From: Eubacteriales bacterium
Lineage (GTDB): Bacteria; Bacillota; Clostridia; Oscillospirales; QAKW01
NCBI GenBank assembly: GCA_045593905.1
Contig: JAZNXL010000055.1
Coordinates: forward strand, 2 to 64,001
DNA length: 64,000 bases
Direction of reading: 5' to 3'
Shown here piece after piece: positions 6,698 to 41,862 of this stretch (positions are counted from its first letter, which is position 1; every line of letters begins with the position of its first letter). The translations under genes and the position numbers were made by a program. The notes under the pieces were generated by a model that saw only the letters and a program-made list of their open reading frames with translations, did no database searches and was not told the origin of the DNA.

Positions 6698-7980
6698 TGA
6701 TTAAAATTTTACAATACGGACAAGTTGAAACATCGCAAATATTTAGTCGCGGCACTGCCGCTACCGATGTTTCGGGAGTTGTTAGCGAAATTATAAATAA
6801 TGTCCGCAAAAACGGCGATAAAGCGCTCTTTGAGTATTGTGAGCGTTTTGACGGCGCTAAACTTTCGTCACTTTTAGTAACTGAAGCCGAGATTGACGAG
6901 GCTTTTGCACAGGTTGAACCAAGATTTATTGAAATTTTAGAAAAAGCCGCAAAAAACATTCGCGCTTTTCACCAAAAACAAGTTAAAAACAGTTTTATTA
7001 TTAACGATACCGACGGTGTTGTAATTGGTCAAAAGGTTATTCCCGTTGAAAAAGCAGGTCTTTATGTACCGGGTGGCACCGCCGCTTATCCCTCAACCGT
7101 TTTAATGGACTCTATTCCTGCAAAAATTGCGGGCTGTAAAGAAGTGGTAATAACAACACCGCCCAACAAAGAGGGGAAAGTAAACCCTGTTATTCTTGCC
7201 GCTGCAAAAATCGCAGGCGTTACAAAAATATTTAAGGTTGGTGGCGCACAGGCAATTGCCGCGCTTTCATACGGCACCGAGTCAATTCCTAAGGTTGACA
7301 AGATTGTTGGCCCCGGTAACGCGTTTGTTGCCGAAGCAAAAAAACAAGTCTACGGTCAGGTTTCAATTGATATGATTGCAGGCCCCAGCGAAATTTTAAT
7401 TGTGTCGGATAGCAACAGTAACCCCCGTTTTGTTGCGGCTGACCTTTTATCACAGGCTGAACACGACAAAATGGCAAGCGCAGTACTTGTTACCGATAGC
7501 TATTCGTTCGCAAACAAGGTTAGTGCCCAACTCGAAATTCAAATTCCGCTTTTACCGCGCGCCGATATTGCAAGAACATCAATAGATAATAACGGCAAAA
7601 TCATAGTCGTTGACAATATTTTAAAAGCCATTGATATTTCAAATGAGATTGCACCCGAGCATTTAGAGCTTTGTGTTGATAATCCGTTTGACTACCTTGA
7701 TAAAATCAAGCACGCAGGCTCAATCTTTATGGGTAGATACTGCCCTGAGTCACTTGGTGACTATTTTGCAGGCCCTAACCACACATTGCCTACAAGCGGT
7801 ACCGCAAGGTTTTCAAGCCCGCTTTCAGTAGACGATTTTGTTAAGAAAACACAGTATACATACTACACCAAAGACGCACTTAAATCAGTTGCCGATGATG
7901 TTGCGTTTTTTGCAAACAAAGAGGGACTTGATGCCCACGCAAAAGCGGCAACAATACGTTTTGAGGAAGAAAATGAGTAA
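6697..7980 (+). CDS. hisD: Histidinol dehydrogenase
   Basis: GLYVPGG, GGAQAIAAL, GPGN, DMIAGPSE, QAEH, APEHLE, GPNHTLPT. Confidence 0.98.
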   Translation: MIKILQYGQVETSQIFSRGTAATDVSGVVSEIINNVRKNGDKALFEYCERFDGAKLSSLLVTEAEIDEAFAQVEPRFIEILEKAAKNIRAFHQKQVKNSFIINDTDGVVIGQKVIPVEKAGLYVPGGTAAYPSTVLMDSIPAKIAGCKEVVITTPPNKEGKVNPVILAAAKIAGVTKIFKVGGAQAIAALSYGTESIPKVDKIVGPGNAFVAEAKKQVYGQVSIDMIAGPSEILIVSDSNSNPRFVAADLLSQAEHDKMASAVLVTDSYSFANKVSAQLEIQIPLLPRADIARTSIDNNGKIIVVDNILKAIDISNEIAPEHLELCVDNPFDYLDKIKHAGSIFMGRYCPESLGDYFAGPNHTLPTSGTARFSSPLSVDDFVKKTQYTYYTKDALKSVADDVAFFANKEGLDAHAKAATIRFEEENE

Positions 7981-35663: not shown

Positions 35664-36605
35664 ATGAAAGTTACAATCATTGGTGCCGGTGCCGTTGGTG
35701 CTGCAGCAGCATACTCAATACTAACACGCAGCGCTGCAAGTGAGGTTGTTTTAATTGATGTTAATATGGATAAAGCCCTTGGCGAGGCTCTTGATATTAA
35801 ACAAGCAACACCATTTTTAGAGAACTGCGATATTTACGCAGGTGATTATGAAGATGCAGTAGATTCTGACTTTGTTATTATCACATCAGGTACAGGCAGA
35901 AAACCCGGTCAAACAAGGCTTGACCTTGTAAATACTAATATTCGTATAATTGAGAGCATTTCTAAAAAAATTGTACGATATGCCCCAAATGCTCTATATG
36001 TTTTGGTGGCTAACCCTGTTGACGTGTTAACTTATGCGTTCTTAAAATTTACAGGTCTTCCTAAAAATCAAGTTTTTGGTACAGGTACAGTTCTTGATAC
36101 CATTAGACTCAGAACAAGACTTGCCGAAATTTACGGAATTAATAAGCAACAGGTTCACGCTCACGTTTTAGGTGAGCACGGCGACAGTTCGTTTGTTGCC
36201 TGGTCACAGGCAAGAATAGCAGGTGTTCCTCTTCTTGACTATACAAGTTCGGTTGTAAACCCTGTCAATATTCCTACTGAGTATAAGTTTGATGAGATTG
36301 AAACTTATGTTAAAAAATCAGGTGGTAAAATTATTGCAAGGAAGGGCTGTACTGTTTACGGTATTGCTACATCTTGTATGCATATTGTAAAAACAATTTC
36401 GGGTAACGCACTCACTGCAATGACTGTTTCTTCACTCCATGAGGGTGAATACGGTGTTAAAGATGTTTGCTTAAGTTCTCTTTCGCTTGTCGGCCATGAT
36501 GGTGTTAGGTCTATCATTACCCAGCCGTTATCAGACGACGAAATAAGAAAAATGCATCAATCAGCTGAGGCACTCAAATCAATTATTAAATCGGTTGGTT
36601 TATAA
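35664..36605 (+). CDS. ldh: L-lactate dehydrogenase
   Basis: GAGAVG, RKPGQTRLDL, NPVD, GTVLDT.R, GEHGDS. Confidence 0.88.
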   Translation: MKVTIIGAGAVGAAAAYSILTRSAASEVVLIDVNMDKALGEALDIKQATPFLENCDIYAGDYEDAVDSDFVIITSGTGRKPGQTRLDLVNTNIRIIESISKKIVRYAPNALYVLVANPVDVLTYAFLKFTGLPKNQVFGTGTVLDTIRLRTRLAEIYGINKQQVHAHVLGEHGDSSFVAWSQARIAGVPLLDYTSSVVNPVNIPTEYKFDEIETYVKKSGGKIIARKGCTVYGIATSCMHIVKTISGNALTAMTVSSLHEGEYGVKDVCLSSLSLVGHDGVRSIITQPLSDDEIRKMHQSAEALKSIIKSVGL

Positions 36606-36611
36606 TTACAT

Positions 36612-36648
36612 AAAAAAGACAAGGCTTTTTGCCTTGTCTTTATTTTTT
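36612..36648. terminator. Bidirectional terminator (ldh, and probably the original tRNA-Pro terminator)
   Basis: aaagacaaggc-ttttt-gccttgtcttt. Confidence 0.8.
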
Positions 36649-36711
36649 ATGGTCGGAGTAGCGTTATAGTAATCAAGCGAAAAACGCGCATAAATACTGG
36701 GTTTTTCGCAA

Positions 36712-37704
36712 CTATAAAGATAGAACATCTCCTAAACAAATATAAGTATGTATGATACACTGCATAGCATCATCTTTAGAAATCTCATTATGAACACCTT
36801 TGCATTGCAAATTAATTAGATTGTCCATCCTATCAATTAAGTAAATTATGCTACTTCCGACTAAGCATTTATTTGTCGATTTATCTTGTAATTTTTCAAT
36901 TACTGCTGATAACTTGTTTTTGTAATGTTCACCACTCACATCGATTTCTTTGCCTGATTTTGTTTTATACATTTTTCCTTTATAGTTAGGGAAATGAATT
37001 TTAAACAATTCATCTGCAACATCCTCAAACAATCTGCGACAAGTAGTAAGAGCTTGTGAATACAGTTCGGGATTATCCGAGTTGATTTTATCATCAATAG
37101 CACGAAGTTTGGATGTGATTTCGGTTGGGAATTTAGAAAAGTAATTATCAACTTTTTCACGATAAATTGAAAAAACATCTGCTGTTGTATTGCTAAACGA
37201 TAGTTCAATGTGCTTTTTTGAAACATAATCATAATACTGTGCTCTTAACAAAGAAAGCTTTCTTTCGTCTTCTGTTATATCTTTTAATAACACTTCTGTC
37301 GACTCTGAAACGCTTCTTGTTAGCGCACCCATAGCAACCAATGCATAGTCCCCCGATACTGACGCACCGCTCATACTAAAATTTTTCAAAGCATCTTTTC
37401 GTGAAGAAATTCGCCCTTCTAACGTGGAGGATAATTGGGTAAATATTACTTTCTTCTTTTCTTTGTCATAACTGCCACGACCATGCTTCCAACCAACTTT
37501 CCAAGCATTAGCAAATATAAACCCATTTTCATCTTCTGGATAACCGCTATTTTCGTATTGGAGCCACGTAATAGCATCTTCATCGTTTGTTAATCTTGCA
37601 ACACGCAAACACATCATAAGCATTGAAGATGTACTCATCGTTCCAAGTTCAACCCCTGTTAGTATTTTTTCACATGTTTCAAGAGCTTGTTCAAATTTTG
37701 TCAT
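36712..37704 (-). CDS. AbiTii-domain-like protein (putative abortive-infection/defence effector)
   Basis: N-terminus SSMLMMCLRVARLTNDEDAITWLQYENSGYP resembles the AbiTii pattern; helical C-terminus with ALTTCRRLFE..AD and CKGVH (HEPN-like). Confidence 0.65.
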   Translation of the reverse strand: MTKFEQALETCEKILTGVELGTMSTSSMLMMCLRVARLTNDEDAITWLQYENSGYPEDENGFIFANAWKVGWKHGRGSYDKEKKKVIFTQLSSTLEGRISSRKDALKNFSMSGASVSGDYALVAMGALTRSVSESTEVLLKDITEDERKLSLLRAQYYDYVSKKHIELSFSNTTADVFSIYREKVDNYFSKFPTEITSKLRAIDDKINSDNPELYSQALTTCRRLFEDVADELFKIHFPNYKGKMYKTKSGKEIDVSGEHYKNKLSAVIEKLQDKSTNKCLVGSSIIYLIDRMDNLINLQCKGVHNEISKDDAMQCIIHTYICLGDVLSL

Positions 37705-39799
37705 TAAAAATCTCCTTTATTTTGCGTTTACTATCATTTTTTGTTTTTTTACAAATAGGACAGCCACGACCTTTGTTTCTATCTGCAATCCTTGCCTGCC
37801 ATTCGTGACCTTCGCTGCATTTCCACCAGACTTTTTTATTGCTGTTAGGTAATACATCCATAGGTGTTAATCCGTCATTTTTTTCATAATTCCATTCTTT
37901 TGCTAACGACGGATTAACCGTTTGCAAATCATTTTCTCCTTTTACGGCATATCGACCTGAACAATATGGGCAACTATTTCCTCTATTTCGCTCTATTATG
38001 CTTGCTTGCCATTCGTGACCTTCGCTGCATTTCCACCATACTTTTTTATTACTATTAGGCATTACGTCTGCAGGCGTTAATCCATTGTTCTTATCATAAT
38101 GCCAATCTTTAGCTAAAGTTGGATTAACTGTTTCCAGATCGTTATAACCCTTTAAAACTTTTCTGCTTGAACAATATGGACATCCACGACCTTTATTTCT
38201 GTGATCAATTGTTGCTTGCCATTCGTGTCCTTCGCTACATTTCCACCATACCTTTTTATGGCTATTTGCTGCAAAATGTTCTGGTCTTAAATTACCGTTC
38301 TTTTCGGAATTCCATTCTTTCGCTATCTCTGGATTAGAAAATAATAGGGAAGTTTCTTTTTCTGAATATTCCCGCAAATTTTCTATGGCAATATTGTCTC
38401 TTTTAATGTCAACATCTACGTTAGTTTCGGTGATTTCACTTAAAAGAAGTTCAAGTATTTTTGATAGATCTTTTTGACTCCTTTGAACAACATAATCTAT
38501 AGAACTGTCATTAAGAGGCGGTAGCCCTTCTCTTATTCGATATAGTTTAATTCCATCGTTTACGCAATTACGGTTTTTTATCAGATCTTGTTTCGTTTTG
38601 TTTTGGTGCCAAAAATACCCATCATATTCAATGGCAACTTTTTTGGATGGAATATAAACGTCTAACTCGTATCCTCTTTCTTTATAAGAATGGATTGTTT
38701 CTAAACCAAATTTTTCAAGATAGAAAACTATAGCATATTCGGGGAAAGAAGTGTTTTGTTCAGAATGACATATAGGACAGCCATTCCCTCTATTTCTACT
38801 ACCTATTGTTGCTTGCCACTCGTGGCCTTTGTTACAAATCCACCATACTTTTTTATCACTATTAGGCCTTACGTCCATAGGTGTTAATCCAATGTTTTTA
38901 TCATAGTTCCATTCTTTTGCCAAAGTTGGGTTAACGGTTTGTAAATCATTTACACCTTTAACAGTATGTCGCCTTGAACAGTATGGACATCCAATTCCGT
39001 TATTTCTACTATTTATTGTCGCTTGCCACTCGTGTCCACCGCTGCACTTCCACCATACTTTTTTATTGCTGTTAGGCATTACATCCATAGGTGTTAATTC
39101 GATGTTTTTTTCATAATTCCATTCGTTTGCTACAGTTGGATTAACCGTTTGCAAATCAGTTTCACCTTTAATGACGTATCGGCCAGAACAATATGGGCAT
39201 CCTCGCCCATCATTTCTGCTACCTATTGTTGCTTGCCACTCGTGGCCTTTGATACATTTCCACCAAACTTTTTGCCCGCTATTGGGCATTACTTCTGCAG
39301 GTGTTAATCCATTGTTCTTTTCATAATGCCATTCTTTCGCTAAAGTTGGATTAACCGTTTGCAAATCATTATATCCTTTTAAAGCTTTTTTGCTTGAACA
39401 ATATGGACATCCTCGCCCATTATTTCTATCCGCTATACTCGCTTGCCATTCATGCCCACAGGGACCAAGCCACCATGCTTTGCGATGACTATTTATAGTA
39501 ACGCCTTTTGGGGTAAAATCGCTGTTTTTTGAGGGATGCCATTGCAAAGCGATTTCGGGCGCAAGTGTAGATAAATCATTATATCCGACAAGCACTTTTC
39601 TTCCAGAGCAAACAGGACATTGATTCCCAGCAACGCGACTGTAACAAGCCGCTTGCCATTCATGTCCTTTGCCACATTTCCACCATACTTTCTTTCCGCT
39701 ACCAAGGGTTAATTGCGATGGATCAAAATTTGTATTTCTTTCCCAGTTCCATTCTGCCATCAGTTCGGCATTATCAATTATATAATTCTTTTCTGCCAT
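37691..39799 (-). CDS. Zinc-ribbon repeat protein (8 DUF4379-like repeats) with an internal PD-(D/E)xK/Vsr-like nuclease domain
   Basis: Eight copies of EW...N...TP..V..NS.KKVWWKC..GHEWQA....R..G.GCP.C; insert SFPE...ELDVYIP..KVAIEYDGYFWH...DLIKN after repeat 5. Confidence 0.85.
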   Translation of the reverse strand: MAEKNYIIDNAELMAEWNWERNTNFDPSQLTLGSGKKVWWKCGKGHEWQAACYSRVAGNQCPVCSGRKVLVGYNDLSTLAPEIALQWHPSKNSDFTPKGVTINSHRKAWWLGPCGHEWQASIADRNNGRGCPYCSSKKALKGYNDLQTVNPTLAKEWHYEKNNGLTPAEVMPNSGQKVWWKCIKGHEWQATIGSRNDGRGCPYCSGRYVIKGETDLQTVNPTVANEWNYEKNIELTPMDVMPNSNKKVWWKCSGGHEWQATINSRNNGIGCPYCSRRHTVKGVNDLQTVNPTLAKEWNYDKNIGLTPMDVRPNSDKKVWWICNKGHEWQATIGSRNRGNGCPICHSEQNTSFPEYAIVFYLEKFGLETIHSYKERGYELDVYIPSKKVAIEYDGYFWHQNKTKQDLIKNRNCVNDGIKLYRIREGLPPLNDSSIDYVVQRSQKDLSKILELLLSEITETNVDVDIKRDNIAIENLREYSEKETSLLFSNPEIAKEWNSEKNGNLRPEHFAANSHKKVWWKCSEGHEWQATIDHRNKGRGCPYCSSRKVLKGYNDLETVNPTLAKDWHYDKNNGLTPADVMPNSNKKVWWKCSEGHEWQASIIERNRGNSCPYCSGRYAVKGENDLQTVNPSLAKEWNYEKNDGLTPMDVLPNSNKKVWWKCSEGHEWQARIADRNKGRGCPICKKTKNDSKRKIKEIFNDKI
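37745..39760. repeat. Intragenic 210-bp tandem repeats (5 + 3 copies)
   Basis: gcttgcca(c/t)t ends at 38820, 39030, 39240, 39450, 39660; the equivalent gc(c/t)tgcc ends at 37800, 38010, 38220 (exact 210-nt period). Confidence 0.95.
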
Positions 39800-39836
39800 A
39801 ACTTAGGCACCTCGCTTTTTAAATTATTACTTATAA

Positions 39837-39865
39837 AGTATACCATAAAATTTTCCAATAGTAAA
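39837..39865 (-). promoter_or_regulatory. Putative sigma-A promoter of the islet operon
   Basis: Minus strand TTTACT-17-TATACT with extended TG, upstream of a GAGGTG RBS. Confidence 0.6.
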
Positions 39866-40051
39866 CATGTGCTGTTTTACGATAAAAACTAATAAGAAAG
39901 GGGTGATGTTATTTGTTTGTTTAATAATTTTGAATCAGTAAAAATTTGACTGGATAATGTGAAAAAGTGTAAAAAGCGTTTATAAAAAAGAAAATGCCGA
40001 AATCGGCATTTTGCAAAATATTATAAATCCGTCTGCGAACCAAACACCGAA

Positions 40052-40150
40052 CTTCTTCACTATTCACTATTACTTATTACTTCCAAAAATCCTTTATTCA
40101 AAATAGCAGAGAATAGTGAAAAGTGAAGAGTGAAAAGCGAAAAAGTAAAA
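40052..40150. repeat. Inverted arrays of degenerate 7-nt repeats
   Basis: tcttcac tattcac tattact tattact ... agagaat agtgaaa agtgaag agtgaaa agcgaaa; ttcactattc pairs with gaatagtgaa. Confidence 0.7.
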
Positions 40151-40177
40151 ATCCCCATTCTTACGAATGAGGATTTT
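40147..40177 (-). terminator. Terminator immediately after tRNA-Pro (islet side)
   Basis: aaaaatccccattc-ttac-gaatgaggattttt. Confidence 0.75.
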
Positions 40178-40253
40178 TGGTGGGAGTGACAAGACTTGAA
40201 CTTGCGGCCCCTAGACCCCCAGTCTAGTGCGCTACCAACTGCGCCACACCCCG
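40178..40253 (-). tRNA. tRNA-Pro(GGG)
   Basis: CGGGGTGTGGCGCAGTTGGTAGCGCACTAGACT-GGG-GGTCTAGGGGCCGCAAGTTCAAGTCTTGTCACTCCCACCA; own promoter TTGACA-17-TAAAAT at 40266-40294. Confidence 0.93.
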
Positions 40254-40378
40254 ATTACTTTATAGATTTTAATGCAAATATTAGCTTATGTCAATACAAT
40301 TTTAAAATTTAATAAACAAAGATTCGCTCAACCGAAAACTAATTATAAACTAATAATCGGTCGAGCTTGTCTTTGGTA

Positions 40379-40454
40379 TGGCTGGGATAGTTGGGTTCGA
40401 ACCAACGAAATGACGGAGTCAAAGTCCGTTGCCTTACCGCTTGGCTATATCCCA
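40379..40454 (-). tRNA. tRNA-Gln(TTG)
   Basis: TGGGATATAGCCAAGCGGTAAGGCAACGGACT-TTG-ACTCCGT...GGTTCGAACC...TATCCCAGCCA. Confidence 0.96.
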
Positions 40455-40472
40455 GTATTAAATTAGAAAAAG

Positions 40473-40550
40473 TGGGGTGGATGATGGGACTCAAACCCAC
40501 GACCTCCAGAGCCACAATCTGGCGCTCTAATCAACTGAACTACATCCACC
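40473..40550 (-). tRNA. tRNA-His(GTG)
   Basis: G-1 plus GTGGATG...CCAGATT-GTG-GCTCTGG...CATCCACCCCA with the C73 discriminator. Confidence 0.95.
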
Positions 40551-40565
40551 ATATAAAATTAAATG

Positions 40566-40642
<77 letters not shown>

Positions 40643-40645
40643 ATC

Positions 40646-40719
40646 TGGAGCGGGTGATGGGAATCGAACCCACGTTATCAGCTTGGAAGGCTGGAGTTCT
40701 ACCATTGAACCACACCCGC
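40646..40719 (-). tRNA. tRNA-Gly(TCC)
   Basis: GCGGGTGTGGTTCAATGGTAGAACTCCAGCCT-TCC-AAGCTGA...GGTTCGATTCC..CACCCGCTCCA; promoter TTGACA-17-TAATAT at 40739-40767. Confidence 0.96.
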
Positions 40720-40854
40720 AAAATTTACGTGCTTAAATATATTAGCATAACTGCTTTATGTTGTCAAGCACATTTTTTAATAATTTATATTTAATATTAA
40801 ACTTGACTAAAATTTATATTTAAAATATACTTATTTAATAAAAGAAGGTGTAAT

Positions 40855-41862
40855 ATGAAACAAAATGGGTTTTTAAAAACTAAAATGATGCAAGAGGCGA
40901 GTGAACAGTCGAAACCGAAAACTCGTTCTAAAGAGCTTTTAACATTTATTATTTTAAGTTTTATTATTTCAATAGCGCAGGGCTTTTTGGTAACACCTGC
41001 GTCGCTTATTTATGTATATACTGACAGCAAAATACTTAATATGATACGCTCAGCAAATCTTGATTTTGATGCTTTTACTGAACGTACGCTTGAACTTGCG
41101 AATAATCAACCTGACTGGCTTTCGATTTTAACATTGTTTTCAACTGCCGTAATGATATTAGGCGCTTGTGTATATTGTAAGTTTATCGAAAAGCGCTCGT
41201 TAAAATCAATGGGCTTTAGAAAAAACAGAGCGCTTGGCGAATACTTAACAGGAATTATTATTGGTGCAATTTTGATTTTTTCGGTTGTAGGTTTGCTAAT
41301 ATTAATGGGTATAATAAAGGTTGAAGGCATTAACTCTTTTTCGGCAATTACAATAGGTTTATACTTTTTAGCTTTTTTGGTACAAGGTGCCGCCGAAGAG
41401 GTTTTATTGCACGGTTATTATATGACAAGCCTTTCGCGTTGCAATTCGGTAAAATACTCAATGGTAAACTGCTCAATTTTATTTGCGCTTATGCACGGCT
41501 CAAACAATGGTATGTCAATACTCTCGTTTATTAATCTGTTTATGTTTGGACTGCTAATGTCAATGTACCTTGTAAAACGTGGTAATATATGGGGTATCTG
41601 CGCAATACACTCTATTTGGAACTTTGTTCAGGGCAATGTTTTTGGTTTGTCGGTTTCGGGTAATGCGAAAACAGCCAGCATATTTAAAACAACAGTTATT
41701 AGTGATGTATCAAATCTTACGGGCGGAGATTTTGGAATTGAAGCAAGTCTTATAACAACACTTGTTTTGTTTCTTGCAATAGGCGTAGTTATTATGCTAA
41801 AACAAAATAAATCAGAAATCGCACAGATTAAACCTGTATTAGAAGGAGACCAAAATGTCTAA
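40855..41862 (+). CDS. CPBP (CAAX/Abi) family intramembrane glutamic endopeptidase
   Basis: AAEEVLLHG, LFALMH, AIHSIWN motifs in a polytopic membrane protein. Confidence 0.9.
   Translation: MKQNGFLKTKMMQEASEQSKPKTRSKELLTFIILSFIISIAQGFLVTPASLIYVYTDSKILNMIRSANLDFDAFTERTLELANNQPDWLSILTLFSTAVMILGACVYCKFIEKRSLKSMGFRKNRALGEYLTGIIIGAILIFSVVGLLILMGIIKVEGINSFSAITIGLYFLAFLVQGAAEEVLLHGYYMTSLSRCNSVKYSMVNCSILFALMHGSNNGMSILSFINLFMFGLLMSMYLVKRGNIWGICAIHSIWNFVQGNVFGLSVSGNAKTASIFKTTVISDVSNLTGGDFGIEASLITTLVLFLAIGVVIMLKQNKSEIAQIKPVLEGDQNV

Follow-up and report, generated by a model that had tools for sequence, protein, structure and literature searches.

Do two overlapping genes located beside a tRNA gene constitute an anti-phage system, or have they become neighbours for other reasons? 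This question is raised by open reading frames 1 and 2 (ORF1 and ORF2), found on the minus strand of a stretch of 64,000 nucleotides from an Eubacteriales bacterium (contig JAZNXL010000055.1; hereafter the window). A first-pass annotation, made from the letters alone, had proposed a dedicated system composed of a zinc-ribbon nuclease as sensor and an AbiTii/HEPN-like protein as effector. In the present analysis, the pair was found to be a promoter-bearing cassette of approximately 3.3 kb in a recurrent hotspot, which runs from a tRNA-Pro gene to a conserved hairpin element. As regards its function, we tentatively read the pair, at slightly less than an even chance, as a facultative two-layer anti-phage cassette that would combine a DNA nuclease with a latent RNase; the role in defence is what we infer.

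Gene layout and domain composition

The two genes and their parts are as follows.

37691-39799, minus strand: ORF1, 702 amino acids
36712-37704, minus strand: ORF2, 330 amino acids
37691-37717, minus strand: coupling junction, with an AAGGAG ribosome-binding site (37717-37712), the ATG of ORF2 (37704-37702) and the 14-nt overlap (37691-37704)
39800-39975, minus strand: conserved 5' region of the ORF1 cassette and ribosome-binding site (promoter scan and conservation)
38762-39763, minus strand: five N-terminal DUF4379 repeats of ORF1, residues 13-346 (per-repeat E 1.7e-24 to 6.3e-19)
38351-38752, minus strand: Vsr/EDxHD-type nuclease domain of ORF1, residues 350-483 (alignment, model and fold searches)
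37745-38326, minus strand: three C-terminal DUF4379 repeats of ORF1, residues 492-685 (repeat alignment)
36715-37146, minus strand: C-terminal HEPN domain of ORF2, residues 187-330, preceded by the AbiTii domain (approximately residues 1-120) and a long helix (121-189)

The coordinates and the overlap given in the first-pass annotation were confirmed. The ATG of ORF2 lies within the final codons of ORF1, with AAGGAG 7 nt 5' of it, and translation of ORF2 is coupled to that of ORF1, as had also been claimed. A single upstream promoter had also been proposed for both genes. A promoter-like TTTACT-17 nt-TATACT sequence with a TG extension was found at 39865-39837, but the whole promoter scan yielded 13 sites against 16.1 +/- 4.0 in shuffled sequences, which is no excess, and the match alone is weak. 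The promoter call was made mainly because the region of approximately 170 nt before ORF1 also precedes, in conserved form, the ORF1-like genes of L010 and L073/G026, from two further genomes. Nearer the tRNA, beyond this conserved region, the L073 sequence departs from that of the window.

ORF1 has the make-up of the zinc-ribbon nuclease that had been predicted. It contains eight DUF4379 (PF14311) treble-clef zinc-ribbon repeats (Pfam, E 1.5e-169) of approximately 70 amino acids each, with the C...H...C..C pattern of zinc ligands kept in all eight, and a domain of Vsr-like fold. In an alignment of 13 nuclease sequences, S351, E354, E378, D380, E391, H398, D405 and K408 were invariant, and E354, E378, D380, E391, H398 and D405 are candidates for the catalytic E, D, H and D residues of the Vsr/EDxHD type. 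The nuclease scored below the curated cut-offs of PF18741 MTES_1575 (20.4 bits; cut-off 38.2) and TIGR00632 vsr (15.1; cut-off 97.85), and it is related to, yet no member of, either curated model. Its structural model (predicted local distance difference test, pLDDT, 90.5) was matched by VIA to Vsr (1cw0; Z 8.7, root-mean-square deviation (rmsd) 2.7, 98 aligned), to the EDxHD homing endonuclease I-Bth0305I (3r3p; Z 8.7, rmsd 3.0, 93 of 98) and to NGO0050 (3hrl; Z 8.4). Foldseek ranked 3r3p second, with a probability of 1.00 and a template modelling (TM) score of 0.67, but with an E value of 7.5e-3. Among the PADLOC models, ORF1 gave no AbiTi match, and its sole hit was a weak one to 'HEase' (E 0.0069).

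A search with the nuclease domain returned 1317 matches in proteins of 386-1229 amino acids, whose length classes track the repeat number, and a scan of 133 of these proteins with hidden Markov models distinguished 23 different repeat-nuclease-repeat architectures. Diversification of the arrays is fast. At L040 (1021-4481), two tandem ORF1-like genes of composition ZZZZN and ZZZZZN (Z, repeat; N, nuclease) were observed, with the nuclease C-terminal and not mid-array. According to the available part of a 2025 study (NAR, PMC12350094), proteins in which CapR/DUF4379/DUF723-like repeats precede an EDxHD/Vsr-like domain are homing endonucleases that belong to phage group II introns. Such related repeats are treated there as DNA-binding modules, and the sensor role first assigned to the zinc-ribbon array was left unsupported. 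A marseillevirus protein with four DUF4379 domains as well as a restriction-endonuclease domain has also been reported (2017, PMC5513546, consulted in part).

The description of ORF2 as AbiTii-like with a degenerate HEPN motif likewise stood. It matched Pfam AbiTii PF18864 at residues 12-60 (29.8 bits; cut-off 27.6; E 8.4e-7) and PADLOC AbiTii PDLC02334 at residues 12-120 (E 3.5e-11). The family alignment was built from 63 full-length relatives of diverse sequence (24-53% identity, and five that are closer). An AbiTii match was present in all 63 and a weak DUF4145 match in two. G54, R223 and N263 are invariant, and E19, C222, G303, H305, T320 and Y321 are conserved in at least 90% of the 63 relatives. 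The nearly invariant E19 in an alpha+beta N-terminal domain corresponds to the strongly conserved Glu that Anantharaman 2013 describes for the AbiTii domain. The sequence CKGVH, which contains H305, corresponds to the family consensus KGxH, and there is no Arg 4-6 residues before H305; R223 and N263 fall on helices other than that of H305.

The model of ORF2 (pLDDT 89.9) consists of an alpha+beta N-terminal domain (helices and a small beta-hairpin at residues 1-108), a helix of 70 residues and a C-terminal helical bundle. When the bundle (residues ~187-330) was compared with 48,161 chains, mostly HEPN proteins were matched, namely AF_0298 (2hsb; Z 9.0, rmsd 3.8, 114 aligned), followed by Roquin (8.8), the sacsin HEPN domain (8.4), the AbiA C-terminal domain (8.2), TT1696 (7.6), SO_3166 (7.5) and LsoA (7.3). 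Z values below approximately 13 are not decisive for helical proteins, and the HEPN call rests on the recurrence of HEPN matches. Foldseek returned nothing at E <= 0.001 for the whole model, with weak Csm6 rows only, and a PDB sequence search with the ORF2-family profile gave nothing meaningful (best E 0.25). The family is large, with 703 matches in a clustered database and 1053 clusters at 50% identity (E <= 0.001).

ORF2 is a member of the c2405-type AbiTii-HEPN family. In Escherichia coli CFT073, C_RS11400 matched the ORF2-family profile over positions 6-331 (183.9 bits, E 4.3e-58), and tblastn with ORF2 residues 148-328 gave 29.8% identity to it (E 1.8e-22). The sequences TTCRRL, NRL and NKGVH are common to the E. 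coli protein and ORF2, and C_RS11400 has 390 amino acids with HHH_3 at 332-386. It is probably the gene with the old locus tag c2405, as suggested by gene order. At L081 (17573-19768), C_RS11400, which bears the annotation 'ComEA family DNA-binding protein', belongs to the CFT073 island of tcpC, a TIR-domain gene and a macro-domain gene, and 60 nt upstream of it a co-directional gene encodes a 320-aa protein without a Pfam match. The fusion of AbiTii with a c2405-family HEPN domain, with a conserved H and no R, was described in silico in 2013 (Anantharaman et al., Biol Direct 8:15, PMC3710099, consulted in part). In the literature searched, AbiTii-HEPN (c2405-type) proteins are known from sequence analysis only. 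No ORF2 relative was found in viral contigs by profile scan, nor in 50,697 phage records.

The cassette and the tRNA-Pro hotspot

The boundaries of the islet are formed by the following features.

40178-40253, minus strand: tRNA-Pro (anticodon GGG), proximal anchor of the islet (ARAGORN; Rfam tRNA 58 bits)
39976-40177, minus strand: spacer after the tRNA, containing the terminator hairpin of the tRNA (40178-40147), a REP-like inverted repeat (40054-40129) and another terminator-like hairpin (40012-39991)
36677-36709, minus strand: hairpin GCGAAAAAC...GTTTTTCGC right after ORF2, half of the insertion element
36650-36674, minus strand: 25-nt distal end GATTACTATAACGCTACTCCGACCA, identical in the window, L010 and L073/G026
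36615-36641: bidirectional terminator, in common with the convergent ldh gene (35664-36605)

The islet is anchored by a tRNA gene, as first annotated, and it is variable, with counterparts elsewhere that carry defence-like cargo. The pair had further been called its only intact cargo. It is indeed the sole cargo from the tRNA-Pro to the ldh terminator, with no further ORF of substance in this interval, but no broken-gene remnants were seen there, so that the word 'intact' misleads.

The contents of the hotspot differ among the genomes whose available sequence covers it. The same pair directly follows a tRNA-Pro(TGG) gene in L010, a locus of another Acutalibacteraceae genome whose flanks differ. 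ORF1-like genes were located 320-400 nt past tRNA-Pro in four genomes, with three anticodons (CGG in both G026 and G004). An ORF1-like gene with a DUF2513 gene makes up the cargo in G026, and the contig of G673 stops inside an ORF1-like gene, with the tRNA not visible. In G661 (L091, 5676-6791) the cargo is a reversed RelA/SpoT-domain gene matching PADLOC PDC-S33, and in G724 (L093, 3544-6930) it consists of an IS3-type transposase and two proteins that fall into no known family. The hotspot of G024 is near-empty (approximately 250 nt only). A requirement of ORF1 for insertion was rejected on account of the ORF1-less cassettes of G661 and G724. An islet with its own recombinase was also rejected, as none is present on this contig; the genome has four tyrosine recombinases, all on other contigs.

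Comparison of the empty site of G024 with G026 gave a left junction of 95% identity over 261 nt and a right junction of 91% over 46 nt. Both junction alignments meet inside the hairpin loop, to within approximately 5 nt, and the G026 cassette is therefore a precise insertion, with the left half of the hairpin duplicated. At its right junction, the window agrees with this site at 87.5% over 56 nt. The left boundary of the window cassette probably lies at approximately 39965-39985, where similarity to the G026 cassette begins, and the spacer at 39976-40177 is probably outside the mobile cassette.

The 25-nt sequence GATTACTATAACGCTACTCCGACCA ends a conserved element of approximately 95 nt, in which the hairpin and the 25-nt part are followed by a terminator (window 36650-36709, L010, L073, L088-L093). 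When up to 2 mismatches were allowed, 7 of 401 genomes of the order contained GATTACTATAACGCTACTCCGACCA, at 8 places in all, against 0 places for the reversed control. Over its last 9-10 nt it is similar to the tRNA-Pro 3' end; no exact tRNA 3'-end repeat of at least 12 nt (<=2 mismatches) was found. A scan of 36400-40900 against Rfam detected five tRNAs only, with no match for the hairpin element. This element might serve in recombination or encode a small RNA.

The two genes differ in history inside one cassette, with a sharp mosaic boundary within the operon. Between the window and L010, the segment 37751-36672 (the last ~20 codons of ORF1, ORF2 and the hairpin) is near identical, with 4 differences in the 993 nt of ORF2 (99.6% identity). 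In ORF1, the last three repeats are 72-90% identical, after which the sequences fall out of register, and the array order is ZZZZZNZZZ in the window but ZZNZZZZZZ in L010. Identity is likewise 72-90% in the flanks.

A stretch of approximately 340 nt between tRNA-Pro and ORF1 in L010 (3522-3900, promoter included) recurs after ORF2 (7045-7375) and begins with a 10-nt tRNA-like end. It may have been left behind by a second cassette, or when cassettes recombined with one another. In four gut metagenomes, ORF1 was covered by contigs in short pieces only. One sheep-gut metagenome contig joins 36718 to 39875 and skips 3156 nt, including both genes, with 38 nt on its shorter side and undetermined letters between. 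It may represent a cassette-free or differently loaded allele, and is too weak to call.

The tRNA-Pro(GGG) gene closes a Gly-Arg-His-Gln tRNA cluster. In the relatives G006 and G009, a tRNA-Val(GAC) gene sits between tRNA-Gln and tRNA-Pro(GGG); in the window, a 125-nt spacer (40254-40378) is found there instead. Because this spacer contains a strong promoter-like sequence (TTGACA-17-TAAAAT), tRNA-Pro may be transcribed on its own. The repetitive extragenic palindromic (REP)-like inverted repeat TCTTCACTATTCACTATT / AATAGTGAAAAGTGAAGA lies within 40046-40155, just past the tRNA-Pro terminator, and has 9 further copies in the same genome; a very high summed contig depth was observed for this region in gut metagenomes.

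Association of the two genes and explanations for it

The surroundings of ORF2 relatives were surveyed by a pattern-based scan with one genome per species, which gave 26 loci, 25 of them true relatives (48-99% identity). Restriction-modification (R-M) genes were the immediate neighbours in eight of the 25 (L020, L025, L026, L027, L029, L030, L033 and L034). In L026 the ORF2-like gene stands just after a Vsr gene. In L029 and L030 it occupies slot X of hsdM-hsdS-X-hsdR, and this slot between hsdS and hsdR is the position of prrC. A HARE-HTH protein and a NOV_C/PDC-S36 protein accompany the ORF2-like gene in L014/L015, and a KAP NTPase in L019. Apart from the two with an ORF1-like gene (below), the other loci have mobile-element or unrelated neighbours and look solitary. 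ORF2-like genes were absent from all of 40 relatives and present in 27 plasmid records, in three of which, the ones examined, they look solitary. A tRNA-Leu(TAG) gene was observed directly upstream of an ORF2-like gene without ORF1 in L012 (5631-5714), and a Mor-family regulator gene comes after the ORF2-like gene in L011 and L012.

The neighbours of ORF1-like genes were also varied. Downstream of them were found DUF2513 in G026, a NUDIX protein matching PDC-S07 in L038, and proteins without an assigned family in L037 (265 aa, overlapping the ORF1-like gene by 13 nt) and L041 (208 aa, overlapping by 4 nt). These last two were unrelated to the ORF2-family profile and had no PADLOC hits, and the Atlas contained unnamed clusters only for the 265-aa protein. 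The ORF1-like gene of L038 lies among an McrBC fragment, PDC-S07 and a PtuA-like ATPase, and those of L074, L075 and L037 stand alone in housekeeping contexts.

The favoured reading of the pair as a two-layer defence was reached because the usual neighbours of ORF2 are DNA-restriction modules, a setting of HEPN domains with which the 2013 study is concerned and for which PrrC with EcoprrI is the paradigm. One promoter would serve both genes, with ORF2 translation coupled to that of ORF1. ORF1 would be a Vsr/EDxHD endonuclease whose zinc-ribbon modules bind DNA and set target choice, and it would cut incoming DNA as the first layer. The AbiTii N-domain of ORF2 would act as a sensor or regulator controlling the HEPN domain, which would be a metal-independent RNase acting via H305, with R223 and N263 replacing the missing motif Arg. 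If the first layer failed or was inhibited, ORF2 would halt translation and abort the infection, by analogy with PrrC in EcoprrI, and cross-talk between the two proteins may take place. This reading is supported by the defence-like cargo of the hotspot elsewhere (the PDC-S33 protein in G661), by the neighbours in L038, by the patchy distribution of ORF2 and by the eight of 25 loci beside R-M genes, with two more beside ORF1-like nucleases. Also in its favour are the overlap with a ribosome-binding site, the AbiTii-HEPN family to which ORF2 belongs, the invariant nuclease residues and the Vsr/I-Bth0305I-like fold of ORF1, and the fast diversification of the ORF1 arrays. The invariance of R223, N263 and H305 argues for a catalytic HEPN domain.

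A number of observations weigh against it. An ORF1-like gene was directly upstream of the ORF2-like gene in two of the 25 other loci (L010 and L021, in two lineages). The first-pass annotation had advised a search for co-occurrence in other genomes; adjacency elsewhere was thus found, but in these two loci only. No ORF2 relative was detected near ten ORF1-like genes (nuclease-domain query; six metagenome loci, three relatives). With these counts, the dedicated two-gene sensor-effector system first proposed was not upheld. In a maximum-likelihood tree of 24 ORF2-like proteins, three ORF1-linked ones fell inside a six-member clade (98/99), with two state changes, and because they are confined to this clade, one or two events may account for the ORF1-ORF2 link. 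(L014, whose layout is that of L015, was omitted from the Pfam scan; L014, L022, which is truncated, and L035, a 25% partial match, were omitted from the tree.) The cassette is without a methyltransferase or other evident self-protection. The Arg of the canonical Rx4-6H HEPN RNase motif is absent from ORF2, and some motif-less HEPN domains are non-catalytic (PMC3710099, consulted in part). No ORF1-ORF2 fusions or longer ORF2-related proteins were found, which is weak evidence, and the literature searched contained no phage tests of members of either family. Among the 50,697 phage records, 273 carried ORF1-like genes (538 places in total), often annotated as endonucleases, and the closest characterised relatives of ORF1 are homing endonucleases, which fits a selfish element equally.

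The association of the two genes is far above chance, because both are rare among relatives (ORF1-like genes, single-copy, in 3 of 40; ORF2-like in 0 of 40), yet it is facultative and phylogenetically narrow. In a class-wide sample, one of 398 other scored genomes had an ORF2-like gene, with an ORF1-like gene upstream and DNA identical to L021. A complex prediction for ORF1 residues 216-702 with ORF2 scored 0.00 against a mark of 0.32, and is evidence neither way.

The main rival, somewhat unlikely when taken by itself and nearly as likely as two-layer defence, takes ORF1 for a selfish, homing-type endonuclease and ORF2 for an independent single-gene Abi/HEPN defence gene. The two would have come together by hitch-hiking and be co-transcribed as a result of compaction, and ORF1 would give mobility or persistence, not immunity. 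The match of the nuclease fold to I-Bth0305I, the group II intron enzymes with CapR/DUF4379-like repeats and a Vsr-like domain (PMC12350094) and the many phage copies all favour this, as do the solitary chromosomal copies in housekeeping contexts and the four copies past tRNA-Pro genes of three anticodons. The downstream genes are exchangeable (ORF2, DUF2513, the 265-aa and 208-aa proteins, NUDIX), the near-identical ORF2 block joined to a mosaic ORF1 looks as if modules had been swapped separately, and the plasmid relatives of ORF2 are solitary. However, the hotspot also holds ORF1-less cassettes and a near-empty site, and ORF1 is not needed in cis for insertion there. ORF1-like genes have not spread within genomes, and restriction nucleases are the usual partners of ORF2, which suggests that ORF1 fills that role.

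A further explanation concerns the activity of ORF2, whose HEPN domain might be non-catalytic and work as a regulator or adaptor that binds RNA or nucleotides, not as an RNase effector. The Arg of Rx4-6H is missing across the family, and c2405-family domains were grouped with MtlR, a non-catalytic HEPN, in the 2013 classification (PMC3710099, available part). We nevertheless consider it improbable, as H305, R223 and N263 vary hardly or not at all in 63 relatives of 24-53% identity, which points to a conserved active site and not to a mere scaffold. Very improbable is an addiction or toxin-control module, in which a toxic RNase encoded by ORF2 would stabilise the cassette while ORF1 or the coupling tuned its level and defence was incidental: HEPN domains are frequent as toxins of toxin-antitoxin systems (PMC3710099, in part), the translational coupling is tight and the mobile cassette has no recombinase of its own, but most ORF2 relatives lack an ORF1-like or small antitoxin-like neighbour and a nuclease of 702 aa is implausible as an antitoxin.

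Comparison with known systems and significance

The c2405-family HEPN proteins (DUF4145-like clade) have the architecture of ORF2, with a conserved His without the motif Arg and a near-invariant Glu. Their C-terminal helix-hairpin-helix extension is present in some ORF2 relatives too. What sets ORF2 apart is its coupling to a zinc-ribbon-array nuclease; the available part of PMC3710099 lists no such neighbour for the family. Lactococcal AbiT has the AbiTii domain in common with ORF2, the match being limited to the N-terminal ~50-120 residues of the models. The lactococcal system has an AbiTi partner, whereas at this locus no AbiTi match was found next to the AbiTii gene, and lactococcal AbiTii has no HEPN domain (PMC3710099, PMC13064643, both in part).

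The setting of ORF2 resembles that of PrrC and EcoprrI (type Ic), in which a latent HEPN RNase is co-expressed beside a DNA-restriction module. PrrC is kept latent by EcoprrI and freed when phage T4 blocks restriction, according to the available part of PMC3710099. In contrast to PrrC, which has an ABC-ATPase domain, ORF2 has an AbiTii domain and lacks the motif Arg. Its partner ORF1 is without a methyltransferase. An R-M system would need a cognate methyltransferase, whereas neither gene of the cassette has a methyltransferase domain. A similar theme is found in DUF4145-type HEPN domains joined to DNases of restriction-endonuclease fold in defence loci (PMC3710099, in part). Unlike those fusions and operons, the present pair consists of separate overlapping genes, and its DNase is of the zinc-ribbon-array Vsr type.

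ORF1 has the Vsr-like fold of EDxHD/Vsr homing endonucleases, among them I-Bth0305I and the CapR/DUF4379-like enzymes, with conserved acidic and His residues as candidates for the catalytic ones, and like the CapR/DUF4379-like enzymes it carries an array of zinc-binding repeats of ~60-70 aa (PMC12350094, in part). The nuclease is C-terminal in the phage intron enzymes but mid-array in ORF1 (5 + 3 repeats). ORF1 also differs from homing endonucleases in being chromosomal, outside an intron or intein, and followed by a coupled gene. Occupied (G026) and empty (G024) sites agree on one insertion point in a hairpin, as might be expected of a homing endonuclease gene, but ORF1-less cassettes use the hotspot too. 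The hairpin duplicated at the cassette ends in G026 might be likened to the recombination site of an integron cassette; the four tyrosine recombinases of the genome are on other contigs.

A broader and speculative proposal, which we regard as doubtful, is that ORF1-type proteins are natural, modular zinc-ribbon-array nucleases that are retargeted by reshuffling and head promoter-bearing cassettes, which would enter the conserved hairpin beside tRNA-Pro and bring exchangeable effectors (AbiTii-HEPN, DUF2513 and others). This would amount to an integron-like swapping of immune modules in gut Clostridia, with the recombinase acting in trans and the HEPN protein standing guard over the nuclease in the manner of PrrC and EcoprrI.

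Both protein families were known before, as was the theme of a HEPN protein next to a nuclease of restriction type. The first-pass remark that the combination was unrecognised holds for the particular pairing, but the architecture of ORF2 was already known (c2405 type, 2013). New are the ORF1-ORF2 pairing, the mid-array nuclease with fast repeat reshuffling, and the hairpin hotspot with exchangeable cargo, which was not met in published descriptions, although no literature search was aimed at it.

Whether an Arg-less HEPN domain acts as an RNase is a directly testable question in a large family. Zinc-ribbon-array Vsr-type nucleases are abundant, and are uncharacterised beyond the recent homing-endonuclease proposal. 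The compact cassette of two genes in 3.3 kb, together with natural variants with other or no cargo, makes clean genetic tests possible. A nuclease from nature that took its specificity from a reshuffled array of small zinc modules would be of interest to defence biology and genome engineering alike.

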